The notes: generated by a model from the letters alone, not told the origin. A stretch of 64,000 bases of DNA from an uncultured Ignavibacteria bacterium (GCA_963800255.1 CAWDAK010000016.1:12815-76814); one strand, 5' to 3'. Shown: positions 17,561-56,860, numbered from the stretch's first letter. Numbers and translations: made by a program.

Positions 17561-20500
17561 TTACTTCAGCAGAATCATTTTTTTTGCGTCAGTAAAGTTC
17601 TTCGCTTTTAACCTGTATATGTAAATTCCGCTTGCAGCTTTTTCACCCCATGAATTGGTTCCCTTCCAGGAAATTGTATGCACACCGGGACTCTGAACTA
17701 CGTTATTAACAAGACTTGCAACGCGCCGCCCCAATATATCAAATATCTCCAGGGTAACATCACCTTTTTCTTTCAGCTGATAAGTGATTGTTGTTGCCGG
17801 GTTAAATGGATTAGGATAGTTCTGGTATAAAGCATACGTGTTCGGCTGCAGCGATATATTCTCCGAATGTATCTTTGCAAATTCTTCTGTACCAATGATT
17901 ATTCTGAAGTGACTCTGCCCGCTGCCCGCCGCGGCCAGCTCAACAGAACCTTCATTCATATCGATAGGAATTTCCCTGTCCCTGTCAAGCACCCATATCC
18001 TGAAGGTCTCCGGCAGGGCCGACAGCCTATCTAAGGCCAGTCTGTATGCCTGCCCCGGAGATTTTGTGGAAACTCTGAAGTCCCAGAATGCACCATCCTT
18101 TGAAACGTTCACAACATTCCGGGCATAAATACTTTTTCCTGATTCAATGGACAACTCTACCGCATCGCTTATGGCAGGCGGCTTCATTACATCAAACCTG
18201 TCCATATCATCTTTCGCGCCTTCCATCATACCTACAAAGTTCTGCTGGTCTTTTTGTCCCGACCCAAGATACGCTTTCAGCTGAACCACAAACTCATCAT
18301 CTTTCAATGCGGTAAATAAATTGCTCTGGTGCTTCAGGAGGGAAACATTCGGACTTACGTTCAGGTTGATGATTGAAGACGTCGGGTTGTAAACCCAGTA
18401 GCCTTCCCACGGCTCAAGTACCAGCTGATCCAGTTCATATTCCTGGGTATCAGGATTAAAACGCAGCGGCGCCTGAAGCAGAAGGCTTGCATTCTCAATC
18501 AATCCCCAGTCAACAGGAAAAGCGAAGGGATCGCCTATCTGGTTGTACCCGGGCTGTATGGTGATGGTGTAGTTATTGAATGACGGCACGCTCTGTGAAT
18601 TATCAAGATCAAAGGTTCTGCCCTCTTTGTTTATCAGCCAGAAAGCATTACCCGGGATGACGTTTCCGGTTATTGAACTGTACTCAGCATAATCATTCTG
18701 CTCTGGCTGCCACCTGAAGATACGCCAGCTCTTCGGGTCGTATGCTCCGTAATCATCCATAAAAACTGAATCAATCTCCGGCGCCCTTACAGAAAGCGGC
18801 ACAGAGAACATCTGGTATTCTCCTATCCTTAACGGATTGGGATAAAGGACCTGCGGAATATTAACATCAATTGAAGCAGGGTTTAATTCAGGGTTTAATG
18901 ATGGATAGGTTACCGTGGTTAAACCGTCCGAGAACATAACGTAAAATTGAATACCGGATATGGTTGAAAACTCCGGTGGGATATTAAACGTATATACGTT
19001 GCCCTGGTTCGAAAGTGTATCCTGCTGGTAAAGTGATTCGCCAGTTCTCCTGTAGAAGATGTCGCTTGATGTAAATAATGATGAGGAGGGGGGAGTTATG
19101 TTTAAGATTGCTGGCTGTCCTACCCCCGGCGATGATGGAACCTGCACGGTTATTGCCGATAACCCTGTCCCGTTTAATTGAATGATATCAGGACTCCCGG
19201 ATGCGGAACTGTATATAATTAACTCCGCAGTTTTTAATCCTGAAGTGTCCGGTGAAAAACTAACATTCAGATTAATAAAATTAAGGAAGTGAATTGAATC
19301 TCCGTCTACCGAAGGTGTGAAGGAAAAGTTGGATGCATCTAACCCTGTTACCCGGGCACTGTCAATTATTATGTCACCTAATCCCGGATTAATAATTGAA
19401 AGCACTTGATTTGATACAAGACCCACATCAATTGATCCGAAGTTTAATATTGAATCTGACAAACTAAGTTCCGCTTTTACGCCGGTACCCGAAAGAAATA
19501 CTGTGTCAGGTGAGGTTGAGGCATCGCTCACTATTTCCATATATGCAGTTTTTAATCCTTCATAGATGGGTACAAAAATAAACTCTATATCAGATGTCTG
19601 CAGAGCGCTGATACTGTCGATTGGATACCCTGATAATATTCCGAATGCCCCGCTGGTATCATTAACCAGACTCATATTGAAGATATGCAGATTTGCTGTA
19701 CTTGTATTATTAATTGATAGCATGGCAGAATCGGCAGTAACAACCTGGGCATTTCCAAAATCCAGAGGATTGGGAAGCATATTAAATTTAGGGGAAGGCA
19801 GTTTTGCAATAAATGCGTCTTCGCCTAAACCATTTAATATTATGGTGCCGATAGTATCAGTATCATAAAAACCTCCGCAGCCGTAAATATCTCCCTGTAA
19901 ATCATTGGTAAGGCCTCCTAACTGGCAGCCGTTCACTAGTCCTGCAAACCGTCCCCAGAGCTTCTGCCCGGAAGATGAATACCTGGCAAAGTAAAGATCA
20001 TTTGTTTCACTTTGCTGGTCAGTAATAGAAAGTGCAGAAAGACAAATGTTTCCTGCGGGATCAATGGCAATTTCACCTGCCTCATTATAATAGCCCGGGT
20101 TATCCTGTACGGCCCACAACGGTATACCCGACTGATTAAATTTTGCGAGAAAAAGTTCGGCACTTAATAAGGTGTTCAGTACTATTCCTCCGAAATTTGC
20201 CATACCCGAAAAGGAACCTGTTATTACTATATTGTCATCTTTATCAACAGCAACGTCTGTTCCGTATGAATATGAATTGCTGGAATCACTGGTAACCTGC
20301 ACTACCCAGTCGAAATTTCCCAGCGCATCATACTTCGCCAGGTATATATCCTGGTTTGTTCCGTCGTAACTGCTCACAAGGGTAGAGTCACCAAAGGTGA
20401 TGACATCAGAAAAAGATCCGGTAATGAATACGTTGTCATTCTGATCCGTTCTTACACCGCGCGCTATATTATAGAAACTTGATCCGCTTGACAGATTGTA

Positions 20501-21184
20501 AGCGGCCTGCAGCCATTGCTCGTTTCCAAGCGCATCATACTTCACTGCAAAGATATCACCCCATTGGTTACTTGACTGTACGCTGAACTGACCGAAAGTT
20601 GCAAACTGGGTGAAGCTGCCGGTTACAATTACGTTGTTCTGGTTGTCAGTTGTTACTTCAAATCCAATATCACTGCCTTGGCCGCCGCCCTGCTTTGCCC
20701 ACTTGAAAAGACCATCTGAACTGTATTCAGCAACAAAAACATCGTTGCCTCCGAATGAGTTCAGTGTAGTGGTACCGAATATTGCTACGCCGTTGAATAG
20801 GCCGGTTACGATTATATTACCGAGCCTGTCAGTAGTAACACTGTAAGGCTGATCATAACTTGTACCGCCTGCGCTTATAGCCCATAGCACCGTTCCTGTA
20901 TTCGTGTATTTGGCAATATAGATATCGCCTCCCCCGATGGGATCAAGACTGAAACCTCCGAAGGTTGCAAGGCCGTCATAATAACCGGCCACAATTATGT
21001 TGCCGTCGGGATCTACGGTAAGGTCAGAGGCGTAGTCATAGCCATCGCTGCCGCCATTTACCGCAAATAAGAATTCAGGTGCCTGACCCGGCAGTATCTG
21101 TGCAGAAAGATTCTGGAAAACCGCGGCCGCAATAATTATTATTATTGTTGTTACCCTGGTAAAAATAAGTTTTTGTTTATCCAT
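17561..21184 (-). CDS. Large secreted protein: SBBP-type beta-propeller repeats, Ig-like (ASH/HYDIN-like) domains and a T9SS type-A C-terminal sorting domain
   Basis: Signal peptide. N-terminal repeats of the form D..GN(I/V)(I/Y)(V/I)(T/A)G.F.G...FG. Repeated LDFG../LNFGS..VG Ig-like modules. C-terminus YQNYPNPFNPATTITYQL...EIFDILGRRV...GIYIYRLKAKNF...KMILLK. Confidence 0.8.
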   Translation of the reverse strand: MDKQKLIFTRVTTIIIIIAAAVFQNLSAQILPGQAPEFLFAVNGGSDGYDYASDLTVDPDGNIIVAGYYDGLATFGGFSLDPIGGGDIYIAKYTNTGTVLWAISAGGTSYDQPYSVTTDRLGNIIVTGLFNGVAIFGTTTLNSFGGNDVFVAEYSSDGLFKWAKQGGGQGSDIGFEVTTDNQNNVIVTGSFTQFATFGQFSVQSSNQWGDIFAVKYDALGNEQWLQAAYNLSSGSSFYNIARGVRTDQNDNVFITGSFSDVITFGDSTLVSSYDGTNQDIYLAKYDALGNFDWVVQVTSDSSNSYSYGTDVAVDKDDNIVITGSFSGMANFGGIVLNTLLSAELFLAKFNQSGIPLWAVQDNPGYYNEAGEIAIDPAGNICLSALSITDQQSETNDLYFARYSSSGQKLWGRFAGLVNGCQLGGLTNDLQGDIYGCGGFYDTDTIGTIILNGLGEDAFIAKLPSPKFNMLPNPLDFGNAQVVTADSAMLSINNTSTANLHIFNMSLVNDTSGAFGILSGYPIDSISALQTSDIEFIFVPIYEGLKTAYMEIVSDASTSPDTVFLSGTGVKAELSLSDSILNFGSIDVGLVSNQVLSIINPGLGDIIIDSARVTGLDASNFSFTPSVDGDSIHFLNFINLNVSFSPDTSGLKTAELIIYSSASGSPDIIQLNGTGLSAITVQVPSSPGVGQPAILNITPPSSSLFTSSDIFYRRTGESLYQQDTLSNQGNVYTFNIPPEFSTISGIQFYVMFSDGLTTVTYPSLNPELNPASIDVNIPQVLYPNPLRIGEYQMFSVPLSVRAPEIDSVFMDDYGAYDPKSWRIFRWQPEQNDYAEYSSITGNVIPGNAFWLINKEGRTFDLDNSQSVPSFNNYTITIQPGYNQIGDPFAFPVDWGLIENASLLLQAPLRFNPDTQEYELDQLVLEPWEGYWVYNPTSSIINLNVSPNVSLLKHQSNLFTALKDDEFVVQLKAYLGSGQKDQQNFVGMMEGAKDDMDRFDVMKPPAISDAVELSIESGKSIYARNVVNVSKDGAFWDFRVSTKSPGQAYRLALDRLSALPETFRIWVLDRDREIPIDMNEGSVELAAAGSGQSHFRIIIGTEEFAKIHSENISLQPNTYALYQNYPNPFNPATTITYQLKEKGDVTLEIFDILGRRVASLVNNVVQSPGVHTISWKGTNSWGEKAASGIYIYRLKAKNFTDAKKMILLK

Positions 21185-21214: not shown

Positions 21215-22321
21215 CTACAATGAAACTTTGATACCGCCGCTTACAGCATAGCTGCTTAGATCAGTTTTACCGTCAGCACTGCCGATAACATACCTTAGCA
21301 TTACAGGAACAGAGATTGAGGATGATAGCTTGAACTGCGGGGATAAACGGATACCGTATAAAGTGTATCCTGAAAAATAACCTGCCGTCTTTTCATAAAG
21401 ACTTGTGAACAACCCGTACCCCAGTGAGAATGAGGCATTGAAATACTGGTTGTATGATGCATCAATATAAAACTGGTTGGGAGTTATTTTTTCATTATCA
21501 AGCACCGCGTTATCGCCTTTAAGTTCATCCAGTGCCACGTTCCTGTATAGCAGCCCTATGCTTAGGAAATCATATCCAAAAAACTGCCTGTACATAGAAT
21601 TGAAGATGATCCTGTTGCCTGAGGAAAAAACTTCCTTACCGTTAAGCTTATCACTGCCATAAAAGATGCCGATAAGATCACCGGAGATCGTCTGCGTTTC
21701 ACTGAGCTTTATATCCAGTCCTGCTGTAAGAGAGACCTCATTTGATGGTGCATATTTATAGTCTGCTATATTCAGGGGCTGATACTCTGACTTAAACTGG
21801 TAAGAAACTCCGGCACCAACTACTGCATCATCTGACAGCGGGTGAAGCCAGGTAGCCCCGATGAAAGCATTTAATCCCTGCCCGAAATTGGATGTCTTTA
21901 ATCCAAACAGTTCCTGGCTTACTACCTGCGAAACAGCGAATTCAGTAGGATTTAATTTTGTCTTCCCGGTCGGGATATTAAAGCCGGCATCGAATGACAG
22001 GTTCTCATCGGGCAATTTCTGGTTAACAAATAACTGCAGATCCGAAAGTCCGCTCAGGTCGCTGTTTATGCTTCCCAGTTTTGTGCTGGCCGAAGCGTAC
22101 CTTGTAACAAGTCCTACCGAAGTATTCGTAAGCGGATTATATCCCGCAGAAATAATATTTGTAAACTCTGAAAAATCAGAGCTGTCATTAACTGACCAGC
22201 TCTCATAAACCGGCATAATGTTTATGGTGGCATTGGGCCGCTGGTTGTAAATGTCCTGTGGATAACTGCTTACTGTAAGGACAAAAACGAGAAATAAAAT
22301 AATCTTAAAAAAACTTTTCAT
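21215..22321 (-). CDS. Putative outer-membrane beta-barrel protein
   Basis: Signal peptide. Alternating hydrophobic/polar strands with Y/G/S/N-rich turns throughout. No family recognised. Confidence 0.5.
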   Translation of the reverse strand: MKSFFKIILFLVFVLTVSSYPQDIYNQRPNATINIMPVYESWSVNDSSDFSEFTNIISAGYNPLTNTSVGLVTRYASASTKLGSINSDLSGLSDLQLFVNQKLPDENLSFDAGFNIPTGKTKLNPTEFAVSQVVSQELFGLKTSNFGQGLNAFIGATWLHPLSDDAVVGAGVSYQFKSEYQPLNIADYKYAPSNEVSLTAGLDIKLSETQTISGDLIGIFYGSDKLNGKEVFSSGNRIIFNSMYRQFFGYDFLSIGLLYRNVALDELKGDNAVLDNEKITPNQFYIDASYNQYFNASFSLGYGLFTSLYEKTAGYFSGYTLYGIRLSPQFKLSSSISVPVMLRYVIGSADGKTDLSSYAVSGGIKVSL

Positions 22322-22351
22322 AGTATATTCCTGTTATTAAAGGCTGAATCT

Positions 22352-23659
22352 TTAATTTCCCGGCGGAGGCGGGGGAGGGGGAGGAGGCGAGGGGAGGTCC
22401 TGGGCTACCACAGCTTCCTGCGCAGGACTACGGCTGTCGATTCCCTGCACAAAATTTGAAACTATATTGCTTCCCAGGTTTTCAAGCCGGCTTGCAGCCA
22501 GGTTAATCATTTCGTTCTTAACTACCGGCGCCGTTTTCCTTAATGTTGATACCAGGTTTTCTTTTGAACCTCCGCTTTTGCCAAGACTCTTGGACGACTG
22601 CAGTTTACTTCCCGCATCTTTGAAGCCGGGATCCATCTGTGAAGCCTGGTTAAAGAATTGTCCTGCCTGCTGAAAGTTTCCGGCATCTTCCTGCAAAAGA
22701 CCTTTTGAGTACGCAAGAAATGCTTCAAGGTTCTGCGTGGGTATGTAGGCTATGTTCTCTTTTTCTTCCTGGGTAAGGTTGAATCCGTTTTCCTGAAGGA
22801 AAGCAAATACTACCTGTTTCTGCAGGACGAACAGATCTTTAAGTGAACCTGATTTGTTTACCCACGATTTTCGCTGGCTTGAAGGGACTTCCCACGAACC
22901 TAAATTAATATTAAAGTCGCCGTCGTCATTCACATCGTAATCCCCGGATACGATCATACCGGCTTTCAGTATTTTACCTACACGAGGCGCGGTGGACTGA
23001 TCTACAGCGTCAGATTGCGCAAGTTTCAGTTCATCAAGAACAGCCTGTATTCTCACTCTTTCAAGTATCTTAATTTCTTTAAGCTTAGCAAGATCGATGC
23101 TTACCATTTCACTGAACCCCCTGCTTAAAGGGGCATAGTCCTTATTAGTTCCCTGGTAAATCAGCGGGAACACTGCCATTGTACTGTCTGATATTTTCTG
23201 TATAGCAATCTCATTTTCATTCTGGATCAGCAGCTTAATATCGGAATAGTTTTCCTGGCGTTTTATCCAGAGATATCTTCCTTCCAGCATTTCCCTGAAG
23301 GGCGAATCTTCGGGAACCGATTTATATCTCGCATAGTAAGCAGCGGCTTTTCCCTGCTCATCGTAAAATTCAAGGTTCAGGCCTTTATAGAAAATGAGTT
23401 CGGGGTCATCGGGATTTATCTCCATTGCCTCCCCGAGGTAGTACCTGGCCTTGTCGTTGTCATGTGTCTGCATATAATAAATGCTCAGGTTTTTCAAGGC
23501 TTCAAAGTCTTTCGGGTTTGCCAGGGTCCTGTCAATCCATCCCCGCACCTGGTTCCTGTACATTTCAGGATTATCCATAAGTGAACCCGAAGAACACGAA
23601 TTGAGGACAAGCATAAGCAGCAATGCAGCAGCGGGAAATAAGAATTTAATCTTTTTCAA
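22352..23659 (-). CDS. Lipoprotein: TPR - CsgG/LpoB-like domain - TPR, with a polyproline tail
   Basis: Lipobox LVLNSCSS. Central MAVFPL.YQGTNKDYAPLSRGFSEMVSIDLAKLKEIKILERVRIQAVLDELKL...VGKILKAGMIVSGDY fits the CsgG-family pattern. C-terminus PSPPPPPPPPPGN. Colinear paralog of 23682..24704. Confidence 0.6.
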   Translation of the reverse strand: MKKIKFLFPAAALLLMLVLNSCSSGSLMDNPEMYRNQVRGWIDRTLANPKDFEALKNLSIYYMQTHDNDKARYYLGEAMEINPDDPELIFYKGLNLEFYDEQGKAAAYYARYKSVPEDSPFREMLEGRYLWIKRQENYSDIKLLIQNENEIAIQKISDSTMAVFPLIYQGTNKDYAPLSRGFSEMVSIDLAKLKEIKILERVRIQAVLDELKLAQSDAVDQSTAPRVGKILKAGMIVSGDYDVNDDGDFNINLGSWEVPSSQRKSWVNKSGSLKDLFVLQKQVVFAFLQENGFNLTQEEKENIAYIPTQNLEAFLAYSKGLLQEDAGNFQQAGQFFNQASQMDPGFKDAGSKLQSSKSLGKSGGSKENLVSTLRKTAPVVKNEMINLAASRLENLGSNIVSNFVQGIDSRSPAQEAVVAQDLPSPPPPPPPPPGN

Positions 23660-23681
23660 ATTTCAACCTCGTTTATATCAT

Positions 23682-24704
23682 TTAAAGCAGCGGCGCTATG
23701 CTTTGAGCTTTTAGTTTAGCCTTCTCATAACCCGGATCAATTTTCAAAGCTTCCTCAAATTTCTCGTACGCATTTTTATAATCTTCTTTTTCAAGGTAGC
23801 TTAATCCCACTGAGTAAGCCATAATAGCATCGAGTGAAGGGGCCTGTGAAACATCCTGCGGCGTCTCCTTCTTTAACGTTACGTTGATGTTATCCGCTAT
23901 TTTCTTCCCCAACTGATCGGTAAGATCAAAAAATTCATCAAGGTCACCCTTTACTTCATCCGTTAGTAGTATCTCGCTGGTTTCAACCTTAACAAGCCGT
24001 GCGCCAAGCCAGATCTGGTCGCCCATAATAATGAAACTTCCCAGCATCACTGTCTGCACACCCAGCTGTTTCCCCAGCCTAACCGCGCCTTCCATATCAT
24101 TTTCGTTCTGAAGCTTTATTTCATCCAGGATCCATTTGATCCTTTCTCTTTCGATAACTTTCAGGTTGGTGGAGTTGTTAAGCCTGTTTATCATAAGATC
24201 CGCAAAACCCTGCTCCATCGGATCATATTGTAACTTATGATCAACCGACCTGTTCTTGAAATCTATTATTGCCATTGTCTTCATTCCCGGATCGGGTCTT
24301 TCAACTGCATAAGATCCCTCGAACTCTTTGCGTGATTCATAATAGAGTTTCATAAATACAGGCGGTTCATAATCGGGATTGAAAACCATCATCGGCGGCT
24401 CAAGTTTGAGAAGCTGAGCTATTGCTTCCTTTGCCTTATCATATAAACCCTTTGCGGAATAGGCCCTGCCAAGGAATCTGAGGGCGTCCTTTCTTATTTC
24501 AATATCCGCTGAATTATCTGAAGCGAGACCGTTCAATATCTCAATAGCATTATCAAACTTTGCTGATTTGTAATACTGCTCAGCCTGGTCAAGCTTTTCT
24601 TTGGAGTCATTTTGTGCATAGACTGCAGACACCATTAAAAGAAAGAATATTGCAAAAAAGAACATGGACATACGTTTACCCGTATGTAATTGTTTATAAC
24701 ACAT
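23682..24704 (-). CDS. Secreted TPR - CsgG/LpoB-like domain - TPR protein (paralog of 22352..23659)
   Basis: Signal peptide ending VYAQ. MAIIDFKNRSVD...GFADLMINRLNNSTNLKVIERERIKWILDEIKLQ...LGKQLGVQTVMLGSF, with flanking TPR-like helices. Confidence 0.6.
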   Translation of the reverse strand: MCYKQLHTGKRMSMFFFAIFFLLMVSAVYAQNDSKEKLDQAEQYYKSAKFDNAIEILNGLASDNSADIEIRKDALRFLGRAYSAKGLYDKAKEAIAQLLKLEPPMMVFNPDYEPPVFMKLYYESRKEFEGSYAVERPDPGMKTMAIIDFKNRSVDHKLQYDPMEQGFADLMINRLNNSTNLKVIERERIKWILDEIKLQNENDMEGAVRLGKQLGVQTVMLGSFIIMGDQIWLGARLVKVETSEILLTDEVKGDLDEFFDLTDQLGKKIADNINVTLKKETPQDVSQAPSLDAIMAYSVGLSYLEKEDYKNAYEKFEEALKIDPGYEKAKLKAQSIAPLL

Positions 24705-24755: not shown

Positions 24756-26481
24756 TTATTTGAAATGGAATACCAGCGAGTGTGTTTGAGGCTCAAGAGA
24801 AGGGGAGATGATCAGCTGAATATCATTTTCAACTGTGCGGTATCCTGTTTTCTTAACTGTTATTTTATAAGTTCCGGGTCCAAGGTTAAGGTCGCCGGGG
24901 GTAGTTTTATCTGTGCTCTGTCCGTTTAAGTATATTACACCCCATATAGGATCGCCGGAACTGCTTAATGACTGTATGTTCACCTGCTGCTGGAAATAAC
25001 AGGTAAGCTCTTTGCTCTGGCTGCCGCCGACGTTTACGGAAAATGTTTTTGTACCAAATTCGGGATGAGTAAATTTTATTGTATGCTTCCCTGACTCAAC
25101 TGTGTTTCTTATCTTTTCATCGGAGTCAGTCAGCACCTTGCTTCCGTCAATATAAATGCTTGCCGCCGGTACAGAACTAAGTGTTAAAGTAGCTTTTGCC
25201 GTGGGAGTCTTTGCCGCCTGCAATTTAATGTTTAGTTCATTCCTGCCGTTATTAACCAGGTACCCGGCATCCTGCCAGTCATCGTAGCCGTTTAGTTTAA
25301 GCATAATTGAATAGCGTGCAACGGATAGTGAATCAAGTGAATAAGGAGTTATGCCTGCCATCTTTCCATTTATGAAATACAGAGGCTCCGGATGGATCCG
25401 AATTTACCAAGAGGCGGGCAGGAATTATTTTTTTCTGATTATCAATTAATATCGTTCCTTTGTTATCCTTAATCTCCTCAGGTTTGTTACCGGTAATAAA
25501 ATAAACCGAAATCAGAAGAACTATTAATATCAGTGCGGCCCCTGCGATATAAATTTTCTTCCTCCCGGATGGTGACGGGGGTTTATTCTCCTCGTGCGTC
25601 TGTTCGTACCTCGACATAATCCTGGTTTTTTCTTCTTCATCTGCAGCTTCCAGCCTGATACCGGTGAGTACTGTGAACATTTCCCCGGTACTCTGGAATC
25701 TTTTTTCAGGCTCCTTATCTATTGCTTTCATTATTACTTTAACAAGTTCCTTCGGGATAAGGGGATTATATTTGGTGGGCGGCGGTATCTTTCCCTCCAC
25801 AATCTGTTTCTGAATAACGAATTCAGATTCTCCCTTTTCGAACGGCGTTCGGCCTGCAAGCATTTCGTACAGGGTCATTCCGAGTGAATAGATGTCGCTC
25901 CTCTTGTCGACATTTTTTAACCCTTTTACCTGTTCAGGCGACATATAATATAAAGTACCTGCAGCGGCATGCGTAACAGTATTCTGTGTCCCGCCCTCCT
26001 GGATGACCTTGGCCAGACCAAAATCCATCACCTTTACTGTACCGTCTTCGTTAAGCAGAACATTGTTGGGTTTAATGTCGCGGTGTATTACTCCCACCTT
26101 ATGTGCGTGCCTGATTGCATTGATTATCTGTGAGCCTATGGCTATTGTCTCTGCGGCGCTGAACCTTCCTTTCTCCCTTAACCATTCTGAAATAGTTTTT
26201 GCGCTGACATACTCCATAACCATAAACAGACCGTATTCAGTTTCCCTGAGTGCATGCACACCAACTATATTCTGATTCTCAAGCCGTGCAAGAGCACGAG
26301 CTTCGGTTTTAAATCTCTGCAGAAAGTTTTCATCTCTTGAAAGAAAAGGATCAATCATCTTTAAGGCAACTAACTTTTCAAGGTTCATATCCATTGCCTT
26401 GAAAACTACCCCCATTCCTCCGCGCCCTATTACCTCGAGGATTTTATAATTATCAACTTCCTTACCTATTAACTGATCCAT
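24756..26481 (-). pseudogene. ppkA: Hanks-type Ser/Thr kinase (PpkA-like) with TM helix and a three-PEGA-domain ectodomain, split by a +1 frameshift
   Basis: GRGGMGVVFKA, HRDIKPNNVLL, DFGLAK and YMSPE. TM helix IYIAGAALILIVLLISVYFI. ORF 25333..26481 ends ...VNSDPSGASVFHKWKDG*. Dropping one base gives ...SGASVFINGKMAGITPYSLD, which joins ORF 24756..25361 (PEGA-like repeats, e.g. GTYKITVKKTGYRTVE). 26481-25361 = 1120 = 3n+1. Confidence 0.85.
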
Positions 26482-26487
26482 TTTAGA

Positions 26488-28353
26488 TTAATCCAGTTTT
26501 GTTTTTCCGCTGAGTAAAATATTCTGAAACTTTGCTGATGAACTTTTATCGACATAAATACCTGCCTTGCCGAAAATACCCCACACACTCTTGTAGGAAC
26601 TTATAAGTCCGTTCTGATCATAAATGCTGATTAGATTGTCTGAGTAAATTATTTTCATCTTCCTTTTGGAAGATTCGATATCCGTCGGCCGGATTACAAG
26701 AAGTTTTTCAATTTCATTTCCCTTGATTCTCTGCAGGGTGTAATTGCCGCCATCCCTGTATTTGAAAATATAATAATCGTTGGGAGAGATATAGCCTATA
26801 ATCAAACCGAGTATTGCATTACGGTTATCGATTTCGGTATTCACAGTTAACGTTACATCAAAAAAATCTTTGTTATAGATTATATATTTTTCACTTAAAG
26901 TATTTGTAAAGCTGAGCTCATCATTGTTAATGGTGAACTCGTTCTTATTTATTCCGGGGAAAGCCCATGCCGATGATCTAAAATCTGAAGCTGTTATTTC
27001 CGGACCTGCTTCAGCTCCTGAGGGAGCCGTTGTTTCTGCTGACGTAGAATCGGTTCCCCGGGCCTTACCCGGGAGCTGACTCGTACAGAGCCTGATGAGT
27101 CCACGGATCTTTTCATTTCCCGGTCTTACTTCTTCTGCCTTTTTATAATATTTCAGGGCACCTTCAAAATCTTTTTCATTCATCAATCTATCGCCGATGC
27201 CGGAATATGCAGAAGCAATCTCATTTACTCCGTCTAATGCTGCCTGATGCATCGGCTGGCCGTCCAGTATTGCCCTGTATATTGAATAAGCATGCTCATA
27301 ATCTTTTTTCTTAAGCAGCTTATCGGCTTCATCAAGTAATTTTGTTTCCGACTCATCAATATTAACGGTCGGCTTCAGTACGTTCACTTTTTCATCCGCG
27401 GGATTCTTAACAGTAAGGTGTGCGGTTTCCACTTGTGAGGCTGTAAATAATGAATCCCTGAACGCAATAAAAAGCAGAACGAGGATAATCAAAAGGACGA
27501 TAAAAATGCCGGGCCAGACGTTCCTTTTTTTCTTTGGAGGCTTTTCCTTATTCTCTTTAACTTGTTTTACTGGAGTAGTTTTTGGAGCTTCTCCTCTAGC
27601 GATTTTTACTATGATAACTGTAACGTTATCTTTTCCGCCGCGCTCATTGGCAAGGTCTACAAGTATATCGCAGGCATCATCTGCATTATTATCAGATACA
27701 ATTTTCAGTATTTCTGCCTGACTTACCTTTGCAAGTCCGTCCGAGCAAAGGATATAGCTTTGTCCTGACCTTAATATTATATCCTCTATTATATCGATCT
27801 TAACCTTCTCATCTACTCCCAGGGCCCTGGCAAGTACAGATTTGGAGGGATAATTTTCCGCTTCCTCCGGTGTGAGAATGCCCCCCCTTAACATTTCCTG
27901 TACCTGTGTGTGGTCATCTGTGAGCTGTTCTATAGCTCCGTTTTCAATTCTGTATATTCTTGAATCTCCAACGTGTCCTATTATGCCTTTTTCCTCTTTA
28001 AGGACCAGGGCAGAACATGTAGTTCCCATTCTTCCAATTTCTGATTTATCACCTGATTCATTATAAATGGCACTATTCGCTCTGTCGATTGAATTTCTTA
28101 GTGCAGCCGGTTCTTCATCAGAAGAAGAAAAATATTCCTCGTTCACAACTCTCACGGCAATTGTACTTGCTTCTTTACCGCCTTTATGGCCTCCCATTCC
28201 ATCCGCCACTATGAACAATTGTCCCTTTGGCGAATAAAGATCTGTACTGTCTTCGGGAAATTTCCCGTGACTATCCTGGTTTTCAGTTCTTACGAGTCCG
28301 ATATCAGACTTTTTCGAGAAGACTATATATAATTTATTATCAGAAGAAGGCAT
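26488..28353 (-). CDS. pppA: Receptor-like PP2C Ser/Thr phosphatase (PppA-like): PP2C - TM - TPR - C-terminal beta-rich domain
   Basis: FIVADGMGGHKGGKEAS, GHVGDSRIYR, LCSDGL and ERGGKDNVTVIIV are PP2C blocks. TM helix WPGIFIVLLIILVLLFIAF. TPR-like YEHAYSIYRAIL..., then ~170 aa of beta-rich sequence. A paralog lies at 62470..63999. Confidence 0.85.
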   Translation of the reverse strand: MPSSDNKLYIVFSKKSDIGLVRTENQDSHGKFPEDSTDLYSPKGQLFIVADGMGGHKGGKEASTIAVRVVNEEYFSSSDEEPAALRNSIDRANSAIYNESGDKSEIGRMGTTCSALVLKEEKGIIGHVGDSRIYRIENGAIEQLTDDHTQVQEMLRGGILTPEEAENYPSKSVLARALGVDEKVKIDIIEDIILRSGQSYILCSDGLAKVSQAEILKIVSDNNADDACDILVDLANERGGKDNVTVIIVKIARGEAPKTTPVKQVKENKEKPPKKKRNVWPGIFIVLLIILVLLFIAFRDSLFTASQVETAHLTVKNPADEKVNVLKPTVNIDESETKLLDEADKLLKKKDYEHAYSIYRAILDGQPMHQAALDGVNEIASAYSGIGDRLMNEKDFEGALKYYKKAEEVRPGNEKIRGLIRLCTSQLPGKARGTDSTSAETTAPSGAEAGPEITASDFRSSAWAFPGINKNEFTINNDELSFTNTLSEKYIIYNKDFFDVTLTVNTEIDNRNAILGLIIGYISPNDYYIFKYRDGGNYTLQRIKGNEIEKLLVIRPTDIESSKRKMKIIYSDNLISIYDQNGLISSYKSVWGIFGKAGIYVDKSSSAKFQNILLSGKTKLD

Positions 28354-28374: not shown

Positions 28375-29862
28375 TTAATTTTTCAAAGTCTGCAGAGCAT
28401 CCTTTAATGGGTCAGTGAAATCAAATCCGAACAACGCGGGATTTTGGCCAATTACCGCAGCAGAGAAAATATAAAAAACATAATTGTATGTTTCATCGGG
28501 AATTTTATCCCTGTACTTAGCAAGGAGGTTCCAGAAGTTCCTGTCTTTCGGGTTGGCGGGAATTTTTCGGATCAGGTCGATAATATTATACTCTCCCCAA
28601 TTATAAGACGCCATCACGAGCAGTCCCGAAGCCTGGGCATCGGTGTTATAAATATCTTTAAGATAGCGCGAAGCAGCACTTGTGGCTTTGGGAAAGTTAT
28701 ATCTATCGTCACCGGGGTCATAAACACTCTCGTTTGAAAGCGGCCCGATAGTAAGACCGTACTTCTGAGCTGTAGCAGGTATAAACTGCCAGATTCCTTT
28801 GGCATATCCGTACCTCGTCTGCGGTCCCACTATCTGGTCACGGAAGTCGCTTTCCTGGAGCGCCAGGTAAAAAAACTGAGGCGGAAGGTCCTGCCTTACC
28901 AGGTAATTTACCACCACCTGTGCGTAGCCATTCTGATTTGCACGGTCAAGAGCTTTCTGCAGTCTCTGGCTCGACTTCCACTTGCTTATATAACTTTTTA
29001 CCTCGTCAATGAAATCTTTCGGCATAGTTAGTTCACACTCACCGAAAGCCCGTGCTGTTTTAATTATCAATTTTTCATCAGGAGCCAGATCATACGTGCC
29101 CAGCTGATCAACAAGCTTGTCATAGTTTTTCTGCAGTTCGTGTCTGCGTTCATCAAATTTCTGCAGAGCCTTAATTATTTTCGGATCCCCCGAAGATGCA
29201 AGATCATGTTTCAGTGATTCTATTTCAAGCTCAAGTGATTTCATATCATAGAAAATATTTTCAGCAAGGGCTTTCTGCTTGTTCTCTTTTATATTCTGGT
29301 AAATAGAGTATGCCGCAGCAATAACCGCAAGCAGTCCTACTACCGCTATTACCTTAATATATTTTGAAGTGTGTTTTTTCTTAACAACTTTGAAAGCTTC
29401 ACGCATAAGGCGGGTGTGTTCACCTACCTGGTCGTCGCTCTTCGATTCGTCGAAATAATGCTGAATATAACTGGTAACGGAAGGATCTTTTAAGGAATCA
29501 GATTTTACTGCGGGAACAGCTTCTTTTTCCTCGAATGAAAATATAAGTACCGGACCATTATTCCCCAGCTCAAGCGTGGTTGTTGCTTTTAATTCGATGT
29601 TCTCGATTTTTTTCCCGTTGAGGAATGTACCGTTGCTGCTGTGCTTATCAGATACCCACCATTTTTCCCCGTCGAAGATAACTTCAACATGAACCCTGCT
29701 TACAACCCCCTCATCAATTGTGATGGAACAATCTTCAGATCTTCCGATAGTGAAAGTTTTATCAAAATAAAATTCCTTCTGCGGGCAGTTCCCCTTTTCT
29801 ATCTTAACTTTGATAATCGTATTTGATAGGGAAGGAGATTCGCTTAATTGTGTGCTGTTCAT
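28375..29862 (-). CDS. FHA domain - TM - coiled coil - SLT-family lytic transglycosylase fusion
   Basis: FHA: FTIGRSEDCSITIDEGVVSRVHVEVIF..KWWVSDKHSSNGTFLNGKKI. TM: YIKVIAVVGLLAVIAAAYSIY. SLT: LALQESDF, YAKGIWQFIPATAQKYGL and MASYNWGEYN. Confidence 0.8.
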   Translation of the reverse strand: MNSTQLSESPSLSNTIIKVKIEKGNCPQKEFYFDKTFTIGRSEDCSITIDEGVVSRVHVEVIFDGEKWWVSDKHSSNGTFLNGKKIENIELKATTTLELGNNGPVLIFSFEEKEAVPAVKSDSLKDPSVTSYIQHYFDESKSDDQVGEHTRLMREAFKVVKKKHTSKYIKVIAVVGLLAVIAAAYSIYQNIKENKQKALAENIFYDMKSLELEIESLKHDLASSGDPKIIKALQKFDERRHELQKNYDKLVDQLGTYDLAPDEKLIIKTARAFGECELTMPKDFIDEVKSYISKWKSSQRLQKALDRANQNGYAQVVVNYLVRQDLPPQFFYLALQESDFRDQIVGPQTRYGYAKGIWQFIPATAQKYGLTIGPLSNESVYDPGDDRYNFPKATSAASRYLKDIYNTDAQASGLLVMASYNWGEYNIIDLIRKIPANPKDRNFWNLLAKYRDKIPDETYNYVFYIFSAAVIGQNPALFGFDFTDPLKDALQTLKN

Positions 29863-38693: not shown

Positions 38694-39767
38694 CTAATCC
38701 TGCTTAAATCTTGAAAGTTTGGGGAATGTAATGCTGTATTTGCCTTTAGGAACTTTCTCCTCCTTTTTATAACCGTTTCCGTCCAGCTTACCCTTTCTTA
38801 TTTCACCGCTTGCCAGGTAAAAAATGTATTCCTCATTCGCAACCGGCTTCCCATCCTGATCTTTTAATTCAATTTCAATATAATCTTCTATGAACAGAGT
38901 GCCGGAGCGTGCAGTAATTGCCGGTTTAGAAAGTGCTGTGAAATAGTAATCTGAGCTCGAGTAACCGTTTCCATCGGATGTCCCTGAAGGAACTTCCCAT
39001 TCGGCTTTTGCCTTACTGCCGCTTACTTTTGCTTCAAAGCTTGCAACCTGTGAATCTGCTTTCTTAATGTCACGTTCCCATACAAAGAAGTTAATTTTTT
39101 CACCATCATCTATTCCTTCAGTTTCAACACTAAGTTCTACTTTATCACCTGGTTTTACCAGCTCCTTAGACCACCCGGCTTTGTATATCTTTTTCAGAAT
39201 TAAACTTGCCTCTCCATCCTTTAGTGCGTCTCTTGTAATTCTTCCGTCGGTCTTTACTTTGCTGTATGAATCCTTCTTATCTGTATCTGTTAATTTATAA
39301 TCTACCCCGCTTACGGTATTTCCGGCTTTATCTACAAGTTTAAATTCTATCCAGTTCTTTTCTTTGGTAGAGGCCTCAGGACTCCCGGCTACGGCACTCT
39401 TCGCACTAGCCTTCGCTGCCGCTGATCCTGATGAACCCGCCCCGCCGCCGCTTCCGCTTCCTGCCCCTGCCATTCCTATCATCACGGTCGTACCCCCTTT
39501 TATTATTGAATCCGGTGGTCCAACGCACGTAGCCATATCACCCATCCTTGCTGCCGGCATTCCTCCGATCAGAACGGTTGGACTTCCGGGAGGCATGATG
39601 GGTCCACCCACATGAGGAATTGGCGGAACGCCCGGGGTTACCATGGGACAAACGTGCATGTCCCCAACTCTCGCTGCCGGCATATTTTCTATAAGTACGG
39701 TAGGACATCCCACTACAATGGCGCCGCCATGCGCGCAGGTATCTCCTAATCTTGCTGCAAAGCTCAT
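38694..39767 (-). CDS. PAAR-domain spike-tip protein with a ~230-aa C-terminal extension
   Basis: GDTCAHGG..VVGCPTVLIENMPAARVGDMHVCP....GPIMPPGSPTVLIGGMPAARMGDMATC..P..IIKGGTTVMIG, followed by a Gly/Ser/Ala linker and Ig-like modules. Confidence 0.85.
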   Translation of the reverse strand: MSFAARLGDTCAHGGAIVVGCPTVLIENMPAARVGDMHVCPMVTPGVPPIPHVGGPIMPPGSPTVLIGGMPAARMGDMATCVGPPDSIIKGGTTVMIGMAGAGSGSGGGAGSSGSAAAKASAKSAVAGSPEASTKEKNWIEFKLVDKAGNTVSGVDYKLTDTDKKDSYSKVKTDGRITRDALKDGEASLILKKIYKAGWSKELVKPGDKVELSVETEGIDDGEKINFFVWERDIKKADSQVASFEAKVSGSKAKAEWEVPSGTSDGNGYSSSDYYFTALSKPAITARSGTLFIEDYIEIELKDQDGKPVANEEYIFYLASGEIRKGKLDGNGYKKEEKVPKGKYSITFPKLSRFKQD

Positions 39768-39786
39768 TATTAAATTTCCTTATTCG

Positions 39787-41922
39787 TCAATTTATCTTTA
39801 CCATCGCTCCTTTAATTGTATTTATTCCGGAAGCTTCAACATTTGCCATAGTCCCTTTCACCTTAACAGCTACTCCGGCTTCCACTGTTGTATTCAATCC
39901 TTTTAGCTTATATTCTGCAGATGCTTCTGATGTAACATTCATCCCTTTTTGCTTCAGGTCGCTTTTTGCTTCTGAATTTATATTCGTTGCATTAATTTTA
40001 TAGTCTGTTTTCGCTTCGGATTTTATATTCGCCGCCTTAACTTCTGTGTCTCCCTCGGTTTCCAATTTGAAGGTTTTCGATTTGATGTTAATCTCGCCTT
40101 CAGGAGCCTGTATATCAATGCTTCCTTCTTTTGACTCTATAAGGAGCTTGTTGTTTTTTATGTCTATAATAAAATTATTGTTCTTTGGTTTATCTGACAT
40201 CTGAATTTTTTCAGCCCCGTCTGTATCATCTATCAGAAGAAAATGTCCGTTTTTGCTTGTTACAACAATTTTTGTGTTTTTGTCATCCAGCAGGATGGTG
40301 TGTCCGTCTTTCGTTGTAATGGTGATATTCTGGTTCTTATCATCCATCGTGATTTTATGTTTATCCTTTGACGTCACCTCGATTTTATCATCTTTATCAT
40401 CCATCAGAATTTTATGCGAATCAGAAGTAGTAAAAGAGATTTGTGTTTCTTTAGATTTGTCGTCAATAAGTATTTCATTACCTGCGGCTGTCCTGATAAT
40501 GTTGTGAGTTTTATTGTTTGATACAACCGGTGAAGCCTGTGAGGGATTCGGCACTGTTCCAATACCTACCGGTCTGTCTACATTCCCGTCAACGCACGCC
40601 CATAAAAGTTCCGCATCCTTGTGGTTCGGGAAGTGCATTCCGTAGCCTGATCCTGAATAACTTTGTGTTAACCTTATCGGCAGGGATGCTTCTCCGTTTG
40701 ATTTGTCGCTCAGATCAAACAGCATCTTGGCTTTATATCTGCCATGTTCGTCCAGGTATGCATATTCGTCACCGGCACCTGATTCCAGTTTGCCGCTCAT
40801 GATTCCTGAGATTTTTGGAACGGGAGTTTTCCTTGCAGGCCTGAAATCAATATCAAATGGTATTGCTTCAAAACGGCATTCATATATCGCATCGGGAGCC
40901 CCGAATTGGTCGGGAATTATGTACAGTCCCTTTTGAGAACCATAGCGGATAACCTTGGTGATGATATATTCTTCGTTCCAGCTCTCACGGAAATGATTGC
41001 TCATTTTAAAACGATAGCCGGGAGTAAATAATCTGCTGTCTGTCTTGCCGGTAAATATCTGGCTTTGTGCGATGAATTCCTGGTTCCTTACTTTTGCTAG
41101 AAATGAACCTGCTTTTTCATCCTCAAAATTGTCTCCGTAATCATAGTAGGTTCCCGGTGAATCAGAATTAATTTTACTTTCTGCCATTAATTGTTTTTCA
41201 GGAAATAGATAGTTGTAGTCTTTAAGCTGAACTTTTCCTGTAACTACCTTTTCACTTGAGGTGAGTTCGAGGATAGTTTCAATATTGGCCGAAGGTTCCT
41301 GTTCCTGGTTATAAATTATATCTTCGGCCATGTCTGCTTTAGGCAAATTGCTGTTATCATCAGTGAAACACACTACCTCTTTATCACCGCTCTGATCGAA
41401 ATAATAATAAATGCCGAAATGTTCCAGCCGCCTGTTCAGAAAGTTAAAGTCGGTTTCTCTGTATTGAACAGCAAACTCGCTTACGGGATAATTGTTTTTC
41501 AAATCAATTTTGTAGTCGCTGCTGGATAGCCCGTTATTCTCAAGAGCGGCTTTTATCAGATCACTAATCCCGACGTTCTGGTAAACTTCATTCCTGAAAG
41601 TAAGTCCGGAATTCCACAGCCGGGGTACAAGCACAACCTTGTAGAAGTAATGGTACTTTGAGTGTCCGAATTGCTGGAATTGTGAAATAATTCCGTGGAC
41701 GGTTGTCGTGCTTTTATCAGATCTGATTAGAGTAAAGGTAGCTGCCTTATTAAGGATTTTCGATGAATCAATATTAGGATCATCAATCGCTAAATATATC
41801 CGGTATTCGTATAACCCCGAAATCTCCTCCTGGCCTTCATATGACATAACCCCGAAATTGGCATCTTCCAGTAAGGTGAATTTAATATTGTAATACGGTT
41901 GATTGGACATTTGATCCGACAT
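39787..41922 (-). CDS. vgrG: T6SS spike protein VgrG (TssI)
   Basis: gp27-like N-terminal part, SGSGYGMHFPNHKDAELLWACVDGNVDRPVGIG (gp5 OB-fold block), then a long beta-helix of repeated ..I.M.DK...I.. units. Confidence 0.9.
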   Translation of the reverse strand: MSDQMSNQPYYNIKFTLLEDANFGVMSYEGQEEISGLYEYRIYLAIDDPNIDSSKILNKAATFTLIRSDKSTTTVHGIISQFQQFGHSKYHYFYKVVLVPRLWNSGLTFRNEVYQNVGISDLIKAALENNGLSSSDYKIDLKNNYPVSEFAVQYRETDFNFLNRRLEHFGIYYYFDQSGDKEVVCFTDDNSNLPKADMAEDIIYNQEQEPSANIETILELTSSEKVVTGKVQLKDYNYLFPEKQLMAESKINSDSPGTYYDYGDNFEDEKAGSFLAKVRNQEFIAQSQIFTGKTDSRLFTPGYRFKMSNHFRESWNEEYIITKVIRYGSQKGLYIIPDQFGAPDAIYECRFEAIPFDIDFRPARKTPVPKISGIMSGKLESGAGDEYAYLDEHGRYKAKMLFDLSDKSNGEASLPIRLTQSYSGSGYGMHFPNHKDAELLWACVDGNVDRPVGIGTVPNPSQASPVVSNNKTHNIIRTAAGNEILIDDKSKETQISFTTSDSHKILMDDKDDKIEVTSKDKHKITMDDKNQNITITTKDGHTILLDDKNTKIVVTSKNGHFLLIDDTDGAEKIQMSDKPKNNNFIIDIKNNKLLIESKEGSIDIQAPEGEINIKSKTFKLETEGDTEVKAANIKSEAKTDYKINATNINSEAKSDLKQKGMNVTSEASAEYKLKGLNTTVEAGVAVKVKGTMANVEASGINTIKGAMVKIN

Positions 41923-42099
41923 TGGGGTACCTTTTTCAGTTTACAATTAAAAATTAGCAATTATCAATTAACGAAATGAATGGCTTCGCAGTCGTTTAGC
42001 GGCTGATTAAACGGAGAGAATCACGAAATAATAACTGGCTGTATATTCCGGATAATCAGCTTTAAGGATCAGGCCGGTATCTGACCAGGACTGATGTTC

Positions 42100-44724: not shown

Positions 44725-44767
44725 GTAATTCTCCAGTTATATTATTAAAAATTCGGGTATATAAAAC

Positions 44768-45790
44768 TTAGTCGGGAACAGAAAGGTATTCTTCGTTCGG
44801 TATGTAGACATTAAACTCCTCAAGAGAAGGTTTGCCCAGCCAGAAGGTGGTACCCAGCTTCAGCCTATCGTCATCCCATGAAATCGATTCGATAGTATCA
44901 GCTTTAATTATGAATTTAATATCGTATTCAAGTCCGTCGTTGAGATATAATTTAAGGAGTTCATTCAATCTTTTAGAATTTTCGGTATGCGGAAGAAAAT
45001 TAAGGTAATCCCCGAAAGAAACAGGTCCTATTTCAAGACAGATCCTGCTCATATAATCGACGGTGGTTCTTCCTATAAAACTGTTTTTTCCGAGACTGAA
45101 ATCATCGCTGCCAAGGGCGGGGACGTCTTCAAGTTCAACCCAGCGGGGAATAAATTCTTTAATTTTGATGGGAAATTGCGGGAAGATATGTGAGAGTAAG
45201 ATCCTTAAACCCTCTTTGCTCCTTACACGCCGGCTGAATACACCGGCAAATTTTATAAGCGTAAAATCTGAAAGTGATGAGGTCCTGTTTCCTGTAAAAG
45301 AGCCTTTGCCTATAAATGAATTTATCCTCTGAGAAATTTTATTTTCAGGATTATTATTTAAATGGAGGTAAAAGCGGTATTTCTTCCACGACTGGTAATA
45401 AAGCCAGTAAAACCTGTTATTAAATATATCCAGGAAATTTTGAAGCGGAATATTCCCCTCACCGAGGATTTTTTCCTGGAAAACTATCTGTTCATGATAG
45501 CATCTTGGAAGGGGAGCATTTATTCCATATAAACCAAGGAAGTTAAGAACAAACTGTATATCATTCTCTTCGAGAGATACCGACCTGATGTCTGTAGGAG
45601 GATAGGCGTAATACTGGCCGGGCCGGAATTTTAATCCCTCCTGGTCAAAAAGATAATCCTTCCTTCCCGGATTATTCTTCTTCGAACTAATTTCACTTAA
45701 CCAGACAGCCTGCCAGACATGGTATTCAGGTCCCTTCTGCAGAATGTCTTCAATTATACGGGAAGTATTTCTCCCAGTGACGGGTTCCAT
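44768..45790 (-). CDS. tssG: T6SS baseplate subunit TssG
   Basis: Size, position after tssF with an overlapping start, and the N-terminal ...YHVWQAVWLSE and LNFLGLYGINAPLP blocks are typical of TssG. Confidence 0.8.
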   Translation of the reverse strand: MEPVTGRNTSRIIEDILQKGPEYHVWQAVWLSEISSKKNNPGRKDYLFDQEGLKFRPGQYYAYPPTDIRSVSLEENDIQFVLNFLGLYGINAPLPRCYHEQIVFQEKILGEGNIPLQNFLDIFNNRFYWLYYQSWKKYRFYLHLNNNPENKISQRINSFIGKGSFTGNRTSSLSDFTLIKFAGVFSRRVRSKEGLRILLSHIFPQFPIKIKEFIPRWVELEDVPALGSDDFSLGKNSFIGRTTVDYMSRICLEIGPVSFGDYLNFLPHTENSKRLNELLKLYLNDGLEYDIKFIIKADTIESISWDDDRLKLGTTFWLGKPSLEEFNVYIPNEEYLSVPD

Positions 45791-47610: not shown

Positions 47611-48059
47611 TCTGAATCCTTATCTAAAGTAACTTTAGTCCAGCCTGTAGTAGAAAATTCTGTGAGCAGGATTTCTTTATTTGAACTGTCCTTAAGTTTA
47701 ATGATTATTTTCAGGGCAGCTCTCAGGGTTTTCTGATCGAATTCAGAATTCTGTATCTGAACTTCACTTACTCTTGGTTCGTATTTCAATATTACTTCCC
47801 TGATCTCCTTTTTTAAGGATTCTACGGGATTATCTGAAGCAAGGTAGATCTGAAGAATATCTGAGATACCAAAATCGGGAAGATGTAATATTGATCCGCG
47901 GCGGGTGGTCAGGATCATCCGGAGGTTCTCTATAATACTCAGGCTCAGCTTCTGGTCTTCGGTCAGATGCTCGAACTGCTGGGGCCCGATTTCATCGGGA
48001 TTAACAACTTCCGATACGAACTGACCCAGTAGAATATTGTACAGGCTTAAATTCTTCAA
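47607..48059 (-). CDS. tssE: T6SS baseplate subunit TssE (gp25-like)
   Basis: IENLRMILTTRRGSILHLPDFGISD is a GPW/gp25 motif. 150 aa. Confidence 0.85.
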   Translation of the reverse strand: MKNLSLYNILLGQFVSEVVNPDEIGPQQFEHLTEDQKLSLSIIENLRMILTTRRGSILHLPDFGISDILQIYLASDNPVESLKKEIREVILKYEPRVSEVQIQNSEFDQKTLRAALKIIIKLKDSSNKEILLTEFSTTGWTKVTLDKDSE

Positions 48060-48089
48060 TGTTGATTGTACTTTTAGTCAATAAAGAAC

Positions 48090-48137
48090 AGGGTGGATTA
48101 TAACACTATAGAATAGTCGTAAATAATTCCACCCTGG
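48090..48137 (-). terminator. Stem-loop immediately downstream of hcp (candidate attenuator/terminator or processing site)
   Basis: CAGGGTGGA at 48090..48098 pairs perfectly with TCCACCCTG at 48129..48137, with a 30-nt loop. It lies in the 92-nt hcp-tssE gap and is followed on the sense strand by TTCTTTATT. Confidence 0.35.
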
Positions 48138-48151
48138 TAAAATAGGTTTAC

Positions 48152-48640: not shown

Positions 48641-48699
48641 GACTAACCTCCGATTAAGTTTAAGTTATAGTTGATTTATATGAATGAATTAATGAACAA

Positions 48700-50166: not shown

Positions 50167-50210
50167 TTTAATTAAACCTCCGTTAACAAAAATTAAATTT
50201 CAATAATATT

Positions 50211-50711: not shown

Positions 50712-50713
50712 AA

Positions 50714-52381: not shown

Positions 52382-52404
52382 AAATGTAACCCTGTTTTAA
52401 TCAG

Positions 52405-53253: not shown

Positions 53254-53293
53254 TACATTTGTGTTTTTTTGAAGCAAACCGTATGAAGTATTA

Positions 53294-56831: not shown

Positions 56832-56860
56832 ATTAAATATTTAAAATTTGAAGAAATGAA

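Follow-up and report, generated by a model that had tools for sequence, protein, structure and literature searches.

The kinase, P340, P435 and barrel genes

We analysed a 64,000-nt stretch of DNA from an uncultured Ignavibacteria bacterium, assigned to the Ignavibacteriales by the names of close homologs (this whole stretch is called the window below), in which the gene for a membrane kinase is followed by genes for two paralogous secreted proteins, P340 (340 aa) and P435 (435 aa), and for an outer-membrane (OM) beta-barrel, B368, downstream of a type VI secretion system (T6SS) cluster. The four genes are, in order of transcription:

24756..26481, minus strand: Hanks-type Ser/Thr kinase with a transmembrane helix and three periplasmic PEGA domains, PpkA by position (Pkinase E 9.5e-56, PEGA E 6.2e-14)
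23682..24704, minus strand: P340, predicted periplasmic protein with a TolB-N/LpoB-like domain between tetratricopeptide repeats (TPR) (N-terminal half of Pfam CsgG, E 3.4e-10; TPR matches)
22352..23659, minus strand: P435, predicted OM lipoprotein and paralog of P340 (BLASTP against P340, lipobox, AlphaFold2 model)
21215..22321, minus strand: B368, predicted OM beta-barrel of ~16-18 strands, 368 aa (AlphaFold2 model)

Every gene discussed here lies on the minus strand, and the gaps from the kinase gene to the surface-protein gene that follows the barrel measure 51, 22, 30 and 30 nt, as expected from the initial annotation of this region, which had described co-directional genes with short gaps. 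When 16800-30600 was scanned for promoters and terminators, the counts did not differ from those of shuffled sequences, promoters of this phylum being outside the scan's coverage, and the scan is therefore uninformative on co-transcription.

The initial annotation had taken P340 and P435 to be paralogs, and BLASTP bears this out, with 28% identity over 200 aa (E 9e-17) in an alignment spanning the central domain and the C-terminal TPR. Pfam places TPR matches on each side of the central domain in both proteins. At the same time, the description of both as lipoproteins holds for P435 alone: P435 has a lipobox (LVLNSC), while P340 has a signal peptidase I site (VYA/Q), and each kind of signal is kept in the respective family in every lineage examined. 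Judged by these signals, P340 is a soluble periplasmic protein, not a lipoprotein, and P435 is an OM lipoprotein. Translation of P340 probably begins at the ATG at 24671, which directly precedes the signal peptide; a 7-bp hairpin at 24668-24687 falls within the first 12 codons of the annotated open reading frame (ORF).

The AlphaFold2 model of P435 (pLDDT 83.8, pTM 0.75) has TPR helices at residues 35-146, a compact domain at 157-290, TPR-like helices at 297-376 and a disordered tail. This tail is ~90 aa long (window 22352-22620) and ends in a conserved LPxPPPPP motif; the run of nine C-terminal prolines noticed earlier was read directly from the DNA, where the protein ends S-P9-GN. Across the P435 family a short conserved end motif follows a disordered stretch of ~60-80 aa, and it takes the form LPxPPPPP in Ignavibacteria, in loci L005, L055 and L057 and in the kinase-less L004, and a strand-like form ('V-I-x-G-T-F-D' or 'IIIIITRP') in Zixibacteria, L052, L006 and L056. 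Its form suggests a tethered peptide that would bind to the barrel or into a TPR groove. P340 family members have a C-terminus of their own, '...K-A-x-S-I-x-P-L' (window 23682-23730), which is kept from Ignavibacteria to Zixibacteria. A profile search of the PDB with the full P435 alignment returned generic TPR proteins only, and a single-sequence search with the P340 central domain returned no match.

The central domain is of the TolB-N/LpoB type

Both paralogs pass the gathering score of the Pfam CsgG model (27.9 and 40 bits against 20.8), so that the CsgG-family domain proposed at the outset is there in name. The alignments, however, are limited to positions 8-99 and 11-99 of the 210-position profile, that is, to its N-terminal half. 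In the P435 model the central domain (157-290) is built as beta-alpha-beta-alpha-alpha-beta-beta-beta-alpha, with five short strands and without the long membrane hairpins of CsgG. Foldseek matches this model to the TolB N-domain (E about 1e-4, root-mean-square deviation 2.7-3.4 A over ~136 residues) and to the LpoB C-domain (TMt 0.65-0.68) and, more weakly, to the CadC periplasmic sensor domain (~260 columns), GNA1162, PelC (E 5.5e-3, TMt 0.55) and FlgT. There was no CsgG chain among its top 50 matches. In distant sequence relatives, the CsgG, FlgO, TolB_N and LpoB Pfam models all match one stretch. Because of the fold matches and the overlapping Pfam models, we call the central domain a TolB-N/LpoB-type adaptor, a member, as modelled, of the TolB_N/LpoB/FlgO/CsgG-N superfamily. 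This is one of the two folds, CsgG-like or LpoB-like, that had been anticipated.

A CsgG channel can be set aside on the same grounds, together with the lack of curli genes: no csgA/B/E/F family match was seen among the scanned window ORFs. NCBI names relatives CsgG/HfaB, and the likeness consists of the Pfam score and, for P435, of lipidation, which P340 does not share. A CsgG-like ring is accordingly not supported.

The domain family is very large, with 12,288 cluster representatives at E<=1e-3, and occurs in many architectures, often in multiple copies and with TPRs. The middle of the TIGR04510 cyclase family (positions 273-431) matches P340. Two distant relatives are fusions of the same domain: P0415 (1822 aa) joins it to TPRs and a Ser/Thr kinase, and P0418 (1494 aa) to an FGE-sulfatase domain of the kind found in TagR. 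Both fit a signalling role, and each is a single example. The TPR region of P340 scored 23.1 bits against TssQ (NF038027; cutoff 65), a helical inner-membrane protein (PMC10781749). We treat this match as sub-threshold TPR noise; the cluster is a T6SS-i with TssJLM and does not offer the T6SS-iii context (TssN/O/P/R) of TssQ.

The barrel

B368 was modelled with confidence as a barrel (pLDDT 85.5, pTM 0.80), in keeping with the earlier prediction of a 368-aa OM beta-barrel. It has no curated family match in Pfam or NCBIfam and 66 detectable homologs. The top Foldseek match is the PelB barrel of PelBC (TMq 0.48), followed by OprD, CymA, FadL, BcsC and PgaA, with near-equal scores (TM ~0.45-0.49) across many barrel classes, which are generic scores for barrels. 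Weak, sub-threshold BCSC_C matches occur in 8 of 54 family members (best E 0.014). The most conserved motif, G-x-N-I-P-T-G-K-T-K, lies in loop 113-150, which bears two short helices and may be an element that enters the lumen or binds a partner.

P435 and the barrel form a core, and P340 follows the transducer

We assembled 57 related loci by scanning GTDB species representatives with the barrel alignment and by look-ups of distant P340/P435 homologs; the carriers seen are all metagenome-assembled genomes. A P435-type lipoprotein adjoins the barrel, or lies within one gene of it, in all loci with upstream sequence (53/53). About 35 Ignavibacteria species share one gene order: DcrB, FHA-SLT, PP2C, kinase-PEGA, P340, P435, barrel and giant surface protein. 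The kinase/P340/P435/barrel block is also found in Zixibacteria (L047, L049, L051, L053), in rearranged form in Gemmatimonadaceae (L052), and in seven unclassified lineages (L005, L038, L042, L044, L055, L057, L058), with protein identity across lineages down to 24-35%. Where tested, the distant kinases carry PEGA. L005 has four CsgG-like/TPR paralogs, and L055, L057 and L058 are, like L005, further variants; in the Zixibacteria loci, L042 and L044, the block is followed by a ~275-aa lipoprotein and a ~1220-aa surface protein of the type IX secretion system (T9SS). The conservation of the trio with the kinase in several phyla, and near T6SS genes, is what the earlier proposal of a kinase-linked module had predicted.

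Other loci lack the kinase. In two loci of Chitinophagaceae type, L046 and L048, a CHASE2 adenylate/guanylate cyclase replaces it and a short P340-like gene is kept; the order (L046 8148-16476, L048 3689-16710) is P435-like, giant, barrel, short P340-like gene, a gene for a protein of 832 aa without known function, CHASE2 cyclase, with the giant of L048 missing from its near relative L046. Three further loci (L004, L006, L056) have the lipoprotein-barrel pair alone, without P340 or a signalling protein. P340 is thus present in every informative locus with an inner-membrane transducer, usually the PEGA kinase, and absent from the three without one. From this distribution we conclude that P340 goes with the inner-membrane transducer and that the invariant core consists of P435 and the barrel. 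Because the core pair is found without kinase or T6SS in some loci and with a CHASE2 cyclase in others, it would have a role of its own.

In three Ignavibacteria genomes (L013, L016, L017; positions 1-2400), the place upstream of FHA-SLT that the DcrB-like gene occupies in other genomes is taken by a weak barrel-like gene and by a second CsgG-like gene of shorter length. A weak partial barrel match in Phascolarctobacterium (L054) had no partners and was treated as unrelated.

The phosphorylation genes and the T6SS cluster

The remaining features of the region are:

38694..60633, minus strand: T6SS-i core, with Fha, TssJ, K, L, M (split), TagF, TssA, B, C, Hcp, TssE, F, G, ClpV, VgrG and PAAR (NCBIfam and Pfam)
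28375..29862, minus strand: fusion of an FHA domain, a transmembrane helix and an SLT lytic transglycosylase (FHA E 4e-17, SLT E 1.6e-12)
26488..28353, minus strand: PP2C phosphatase, PppA by position, with a transmembrane helix and a TPR-containing periplasmic extension (Stp1_PP2C_phos, PP2C_2, TPR_2)
17561..21184, minus strand: 1207-aa surface protein, directly after the barrel (Pfam SBBP propeller repeats, ASH/Ig-like, T9SS C-terminal sorting domain)

All core Tss genes are encoded in the window, including a complete TssJ/L/M complex. Downstream of the T6SS come an OmpA-like giant, two genes without assignment, a PAAR-like/peptidoglycan-binding protein, two more without assignment and a DcrB/DUF1795 protein, followed by FHA-SLT, PP2C, kinase-PEGA, P340, P435, B368 and the 1207-aa surface protein. 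A membrane Hanks kinase and a PP2C phosphatase are thus accompanied, in the T6SS cluster itself, by a T6SS-type FHA protein (FHA and T6SS_FHA_C, 59431-60633) and by TagF (52405-53343). Assigned from its genes, this is a bona fide T6SS cluster of the PpkA/PppA/Fha/TagF type.

A single additional A within a short run of A near 25369-25371 breaks the kinase reading frame into two parts, 25333..26481 and 24756..25361. Removing it gives a 574-aa protein with kinase, transmembrane helix and three PEGA domains, the orthologs being 572-576 aa long and intact in relatives, and we read the kinase as one gene split by an apparent one-base insertion. The tssM gene is broken likewise near 55770-55870, by an apparent single-base frameshift at a homopolymer. 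Both splits are probably assembly errors rather than signs of pseudogenes, since long-read assemblies of relatives show similar splits.

A transmembrane helix and a periplasmic part are common to the kinase, PP2C and FHA-SLT. The phosphatase only just exceeds its model's cutoff (Stp1_PP2C_phos, 231.3 bits against 230); its periplasmic extension of ~330 aa contains one TPR and a C-terminal domain without assignment. With a transmembrane helix and such an extension on PP2C, kinase and phosphatase would both face the periplasm. Ignavibacteria loci as well as L005 and L055 keep FHA-SLT just upstream of PP2C and kinase, and this protein could couple phosphothreonine signalling to local opening of the cell wall for T6SS assembly.

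Most related loci have a comparable giant surface protein, placed either after the module or within it. Its domains vary (ASH, PKD, beta-helix, Big_1 or LRR), and a T9SS sorting domain usually accompanies them.

T6SS genes recur near the module

At least six divergent lineages carry T6SS genes no more than 10 kb from the module, in varying order and orientation. These genes are found in the window and its close relatives (where L062 and L061 were tiled), in L005 (sheath genes), in L052 (PAAR, VgrG, ClpV and TssG, on the opposite strand), in L058 (DUF2169 and PAAR-like genes), and in Zixibacteria L047 and the unclassified L044, where divergent TssK and TssG genes lie 6-9 kb away on the opposite strand. 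The tiling drew on a metagenome scan with the peptidoglycan-binding protein, which yielded five short contigs, enough to establish the T6SS-module adjacency in close relatives. The divergent TssK and TssG of L047 were found with Pfam and missed by phmmer with the window's proteins; L044 shares this block. That order and orientation differ among lineages argues that the linkage has been selected for, and against descent from a single ancestral operon. No T6SS gene was found within 10 kb in the cyclase-linked loci (L046, L048) or in the pair-only loci (L004, L006, L056).

A proposed input module and its alternatives

We propose from gene context that P340, P435 and the barrel are the OM and periplasmic input module of a kinase/phosphatase/FHA switch that gates the T6SS, a proposal that in our judgement could go either way. 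P435 and B368 would form an OM complex, and soluble P340 would bridge this complex to the three PEGA domains of the kinase, feeding an envelope or cell-surface signal into it. Kinase and PP2C would then set the phosphorylation of FHA-domain proteins, namely the T6SS Fha and perhaps FHA-SLT, and this switch would, with TagF, gate assembly of the adjacent T6SS. What the analysis shows is domain content, localisation signals, predicted folds and conserved gene linkage; the contacts, the signal and its direction are inferred. The direction from OM to kinase is favoured because proteins in the periplasm are out of reach of a kinase domain in the cytoplasm, and because the same module is paired with two types of transducer, kinase and cyclase. 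An input function is also suggested by the modelled resemblance of the domain to TolB-N and LpoB, which are protein-binding periplasmic adaptors, and to the CadC sensor domain.

Several observations weigh against this proposal. The contacts among the module proteins are put forward from gene context, and co-transcription of the block is judged from the short gaps. Zixibacteria L051 and L053 have the kinase module and no T6SS gene within 10 kb. The lipoprotein-barrel pair of L004, L006 and L056, without kinase or T6SS, may indicate that its primary job is a different one. The nearly constant adjacency of a giant surface protein fits anchoring or export equally well, and the best fold matches of the barrel model are polysaccharide exporters, albeit at scores generic for barrels.

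These last points lead to the main rival explanation, raised already in the initial annotation as a separate secretion or anchoring device, in which lipoprotein and barrel, with P340 in an accessory role, make up an OM device that anchors, displays or exports the giant protein or a polymer, and the kinase is merely co-located or monitors it. The invariance of P435 and the barrel would be explained, as would their occurrence alone beside large Ig-like surface proteins in L004 and L056 and the giant protein that follows or splits the module in most loci. The overall architecture resembles AlgK/AlgE or PelB/PelC: the PelB barrel heads the Foldseek matches of B368, with BcsC and PgaA also listed and the weak BCSC_C matches alongside, and the P435 domain matches PelC. 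At the same time, no conserved polysaccharide synthase or glycosyltransferase is present in the window cluster or the related loci, and the giants bear T9SS sorting domains, which means that an export route already exists for them. Their domain content is not conserved, and L046 does without the giant of L048. The barrel matches are shared among many classes, and the tracking of signalling proteins by P340 is left unexplained. Overall we think this explanation rather improbable, though still a live contender. The giant surface protein could itself do the sensing, or it could be what an anchoring device serves, and here lies the main uncertainty.

It is unlikely, in our estimate distinctly so, that the trio is instead a structural accessory of the T6SS envelope complex, for example an OM anchor or port, and not a signalling input. 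Its recurrence beside T6SS genes in at least six lineages would agree with such a role, for which the OM lipoproteins TagV, TslA and TagM1 are a precedent (PMC13584744), but the window already has a complete TssJ/L/M complex, the trio adjoins the kinase and not TssJLM, and some loci pair it with a cyclase or lack any T6SS gene within 10 kb. Very little probability falls to the idea that P340 and P435 are LpoB-like regulators of peptidoglycan remodelling that control the SLT domain of FHA-SLT and so open the wall for the T6SS. This idea draws on the LpoB/TolB-N-like fold and on the FHA-SLT gene two genes upstream, conserved in Ignavibacteria, L005 and L055; it does not account for the barrel, and among the loci with the module, those of Zixibacteria, Gemmatimonadaceae and Chitinophagaceae lack FHA-SLT.

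Returning to the input module, a more elaborate form of the proposal, tentative and in our view improbable in all its parts together, would make it a trans-envelope sensor of contact or surface state in the FCB group and neighbouring phyla. The barrel and P435 would hold the T9SS-delivered giant, and P340 would relay its state to the PEGA kinase or, in some Bacteroidota, to the CHASE2 cyclase, so that the touch of a neighbour or damage to the surface would trigger local T6SS assembly.

Comparison with known systems

The initial annotation had suggested the trio as a replacement for the TagQRST sensor of Pseudomonas. In the H1-T6SS of Pseudomonas aeruginosa, as here, an OM lipoprotein (TagQ) and a periplasmic protein (TagR) accompany a Ser/Thr kinase, PP2C, Fha and TagF in a T6SS cluster, with presumed action upstream of the periplasmic domain of the kinase. 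The logic is thus mirrored, while homology is not: P340 and P435 share neither sequence nor fold with TagQ and TagR, the latter being of FGE-sulfatase type, and the module has no ABC-like TagS/T. In agreement with the reported absence of TagR, TagS and TagT homologs, no FGE-sulfatase or ABC domain match was found in the scanned window ORFs. The module differs further in that its block includes a dedicated barrel and a giant surface protein, occurs also away from T6SS genes, and has a kinase with three PEGA domains outside the membrane, where PpkA of P. aeruginosa has a vWA ectodomain.

The alpha/beta domain of P435 superposes on both LpoB and the TolB N-domain, and, like LpoB acting on PBP1B, the OM lipoprotein P435 could act across the periplasm on an inner-membrane enzyme. 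Unlike in these proteins, the domain is flanked by TPR arrays and there is no TolB beta-propeller. The long N-terminal linker of LpoB is also missing: in P435 only a short stretch separates the lipid cysteine from the TPR helices, and the other end of the protein is a long tail with a polyproline terminus. Moreover, the presumed partner is a kinase and not a penicillin-binding protein (PBP), no PBP gene being nearby.

Likeness to PelB/PelC, AlgK/AlgE, BcsC and PgaA is a likeness in parts (TPR, a lipoprotein with a PelC-like domain, a barrel of 16-18 strands), and the TPR sits on the lipoprotein instead of being fused to the barrel. Given this arrangement, generic barrel matches, sub-threshold BCSC_C scores and the lack of synthase genes, we do not place the module in a polysaccharide exporter family. 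The CadC periplasmic domain and the TolB-like and TPR regions of kinases and cyclases (TIGR04510) likewise have an alpha/beta domain ahead of a helical or TPR region; here, though, these are separate secreted proteins, one of them lipidated, paired with a barrel.

The defining features of a CsgG channel, TagQRST, TssQ and a polysaccharide exporter were each looked for and not found, and we place the module in none of these families. The block is probably a T6SS phosphorylation pathway with a different, undescribed envelope module; the evidence for gene linkage is strong, and the function is proposed from gene context. Literature searches on PEGA/PpkA/T6SS, on Ignavibacteria T6SS, on PEGA kinases with outer membrane and TPR, and on COG5616/TolB-like/FlgO returned no description of the module, and none of the T6SS accessory factors covered by a 2026 review has CsgG-like, TPR or PEGA features or resembles the module (PMC13584744).

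How a T6SS senses when and where to fire is understood in a few Proteobacteria only (TagQRST, TslA/OmpA, RtkS). If our proposal is correct, the four-gene block of PEGA kinase, periplasmic adaptor, OM lipoprotein and barrel is a concrete candidate for the input that feeds the phosphorylation control of T6SSs in bacteria other than Proteobacteria. The block is conserved in lineages as far apart as Ignavibacteria, Zixibacteria and Gemmatimonadota. It also lends itself to testing how signals from the outer membrane reach bacterial Hanks kinases, and it gives context to the very large, uncharacterised family to which the central domain belongs. Should the module sense surface state, it would represent a modular signalling route from OM to kinase without a described counterpart.

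Neighbouring genes

The T6SS-i with TssJ, TssL and TssM (38694-60633) occurs in an Ignavibacteria genome rich in T9SS-sorted proteins and is not of the Bacteroidota T6SS-iii type. Between PAAR and the kinase block, two minus-strand genes are likely effector or accessory genes: one (32250-33539) encodes a 429-aa protein that by phmmer resembles the PAAR protein of the cluster at its N-terminus and has a PG_binding_1 domain at its C-terminus, and the other (34810-38685) a 1291-aa protein that is OmpA-like only over a short segment. The DcrB/DUF1795-family protein (29878-30465, minus strand) has no signal peptide, and its position is kept in the Ignavibacteria loci; we take this family to be that of Eag-type T6SS effector chaperones. 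A lineage-specific family of lipoproteins of ~270-283 aa, with no Pfam match, follows the barrel in L042, L044, L045, L049-L051 and L053, and in L047 (11126-13585) this lipoprotein is fused to an LRR/cohesin protein.

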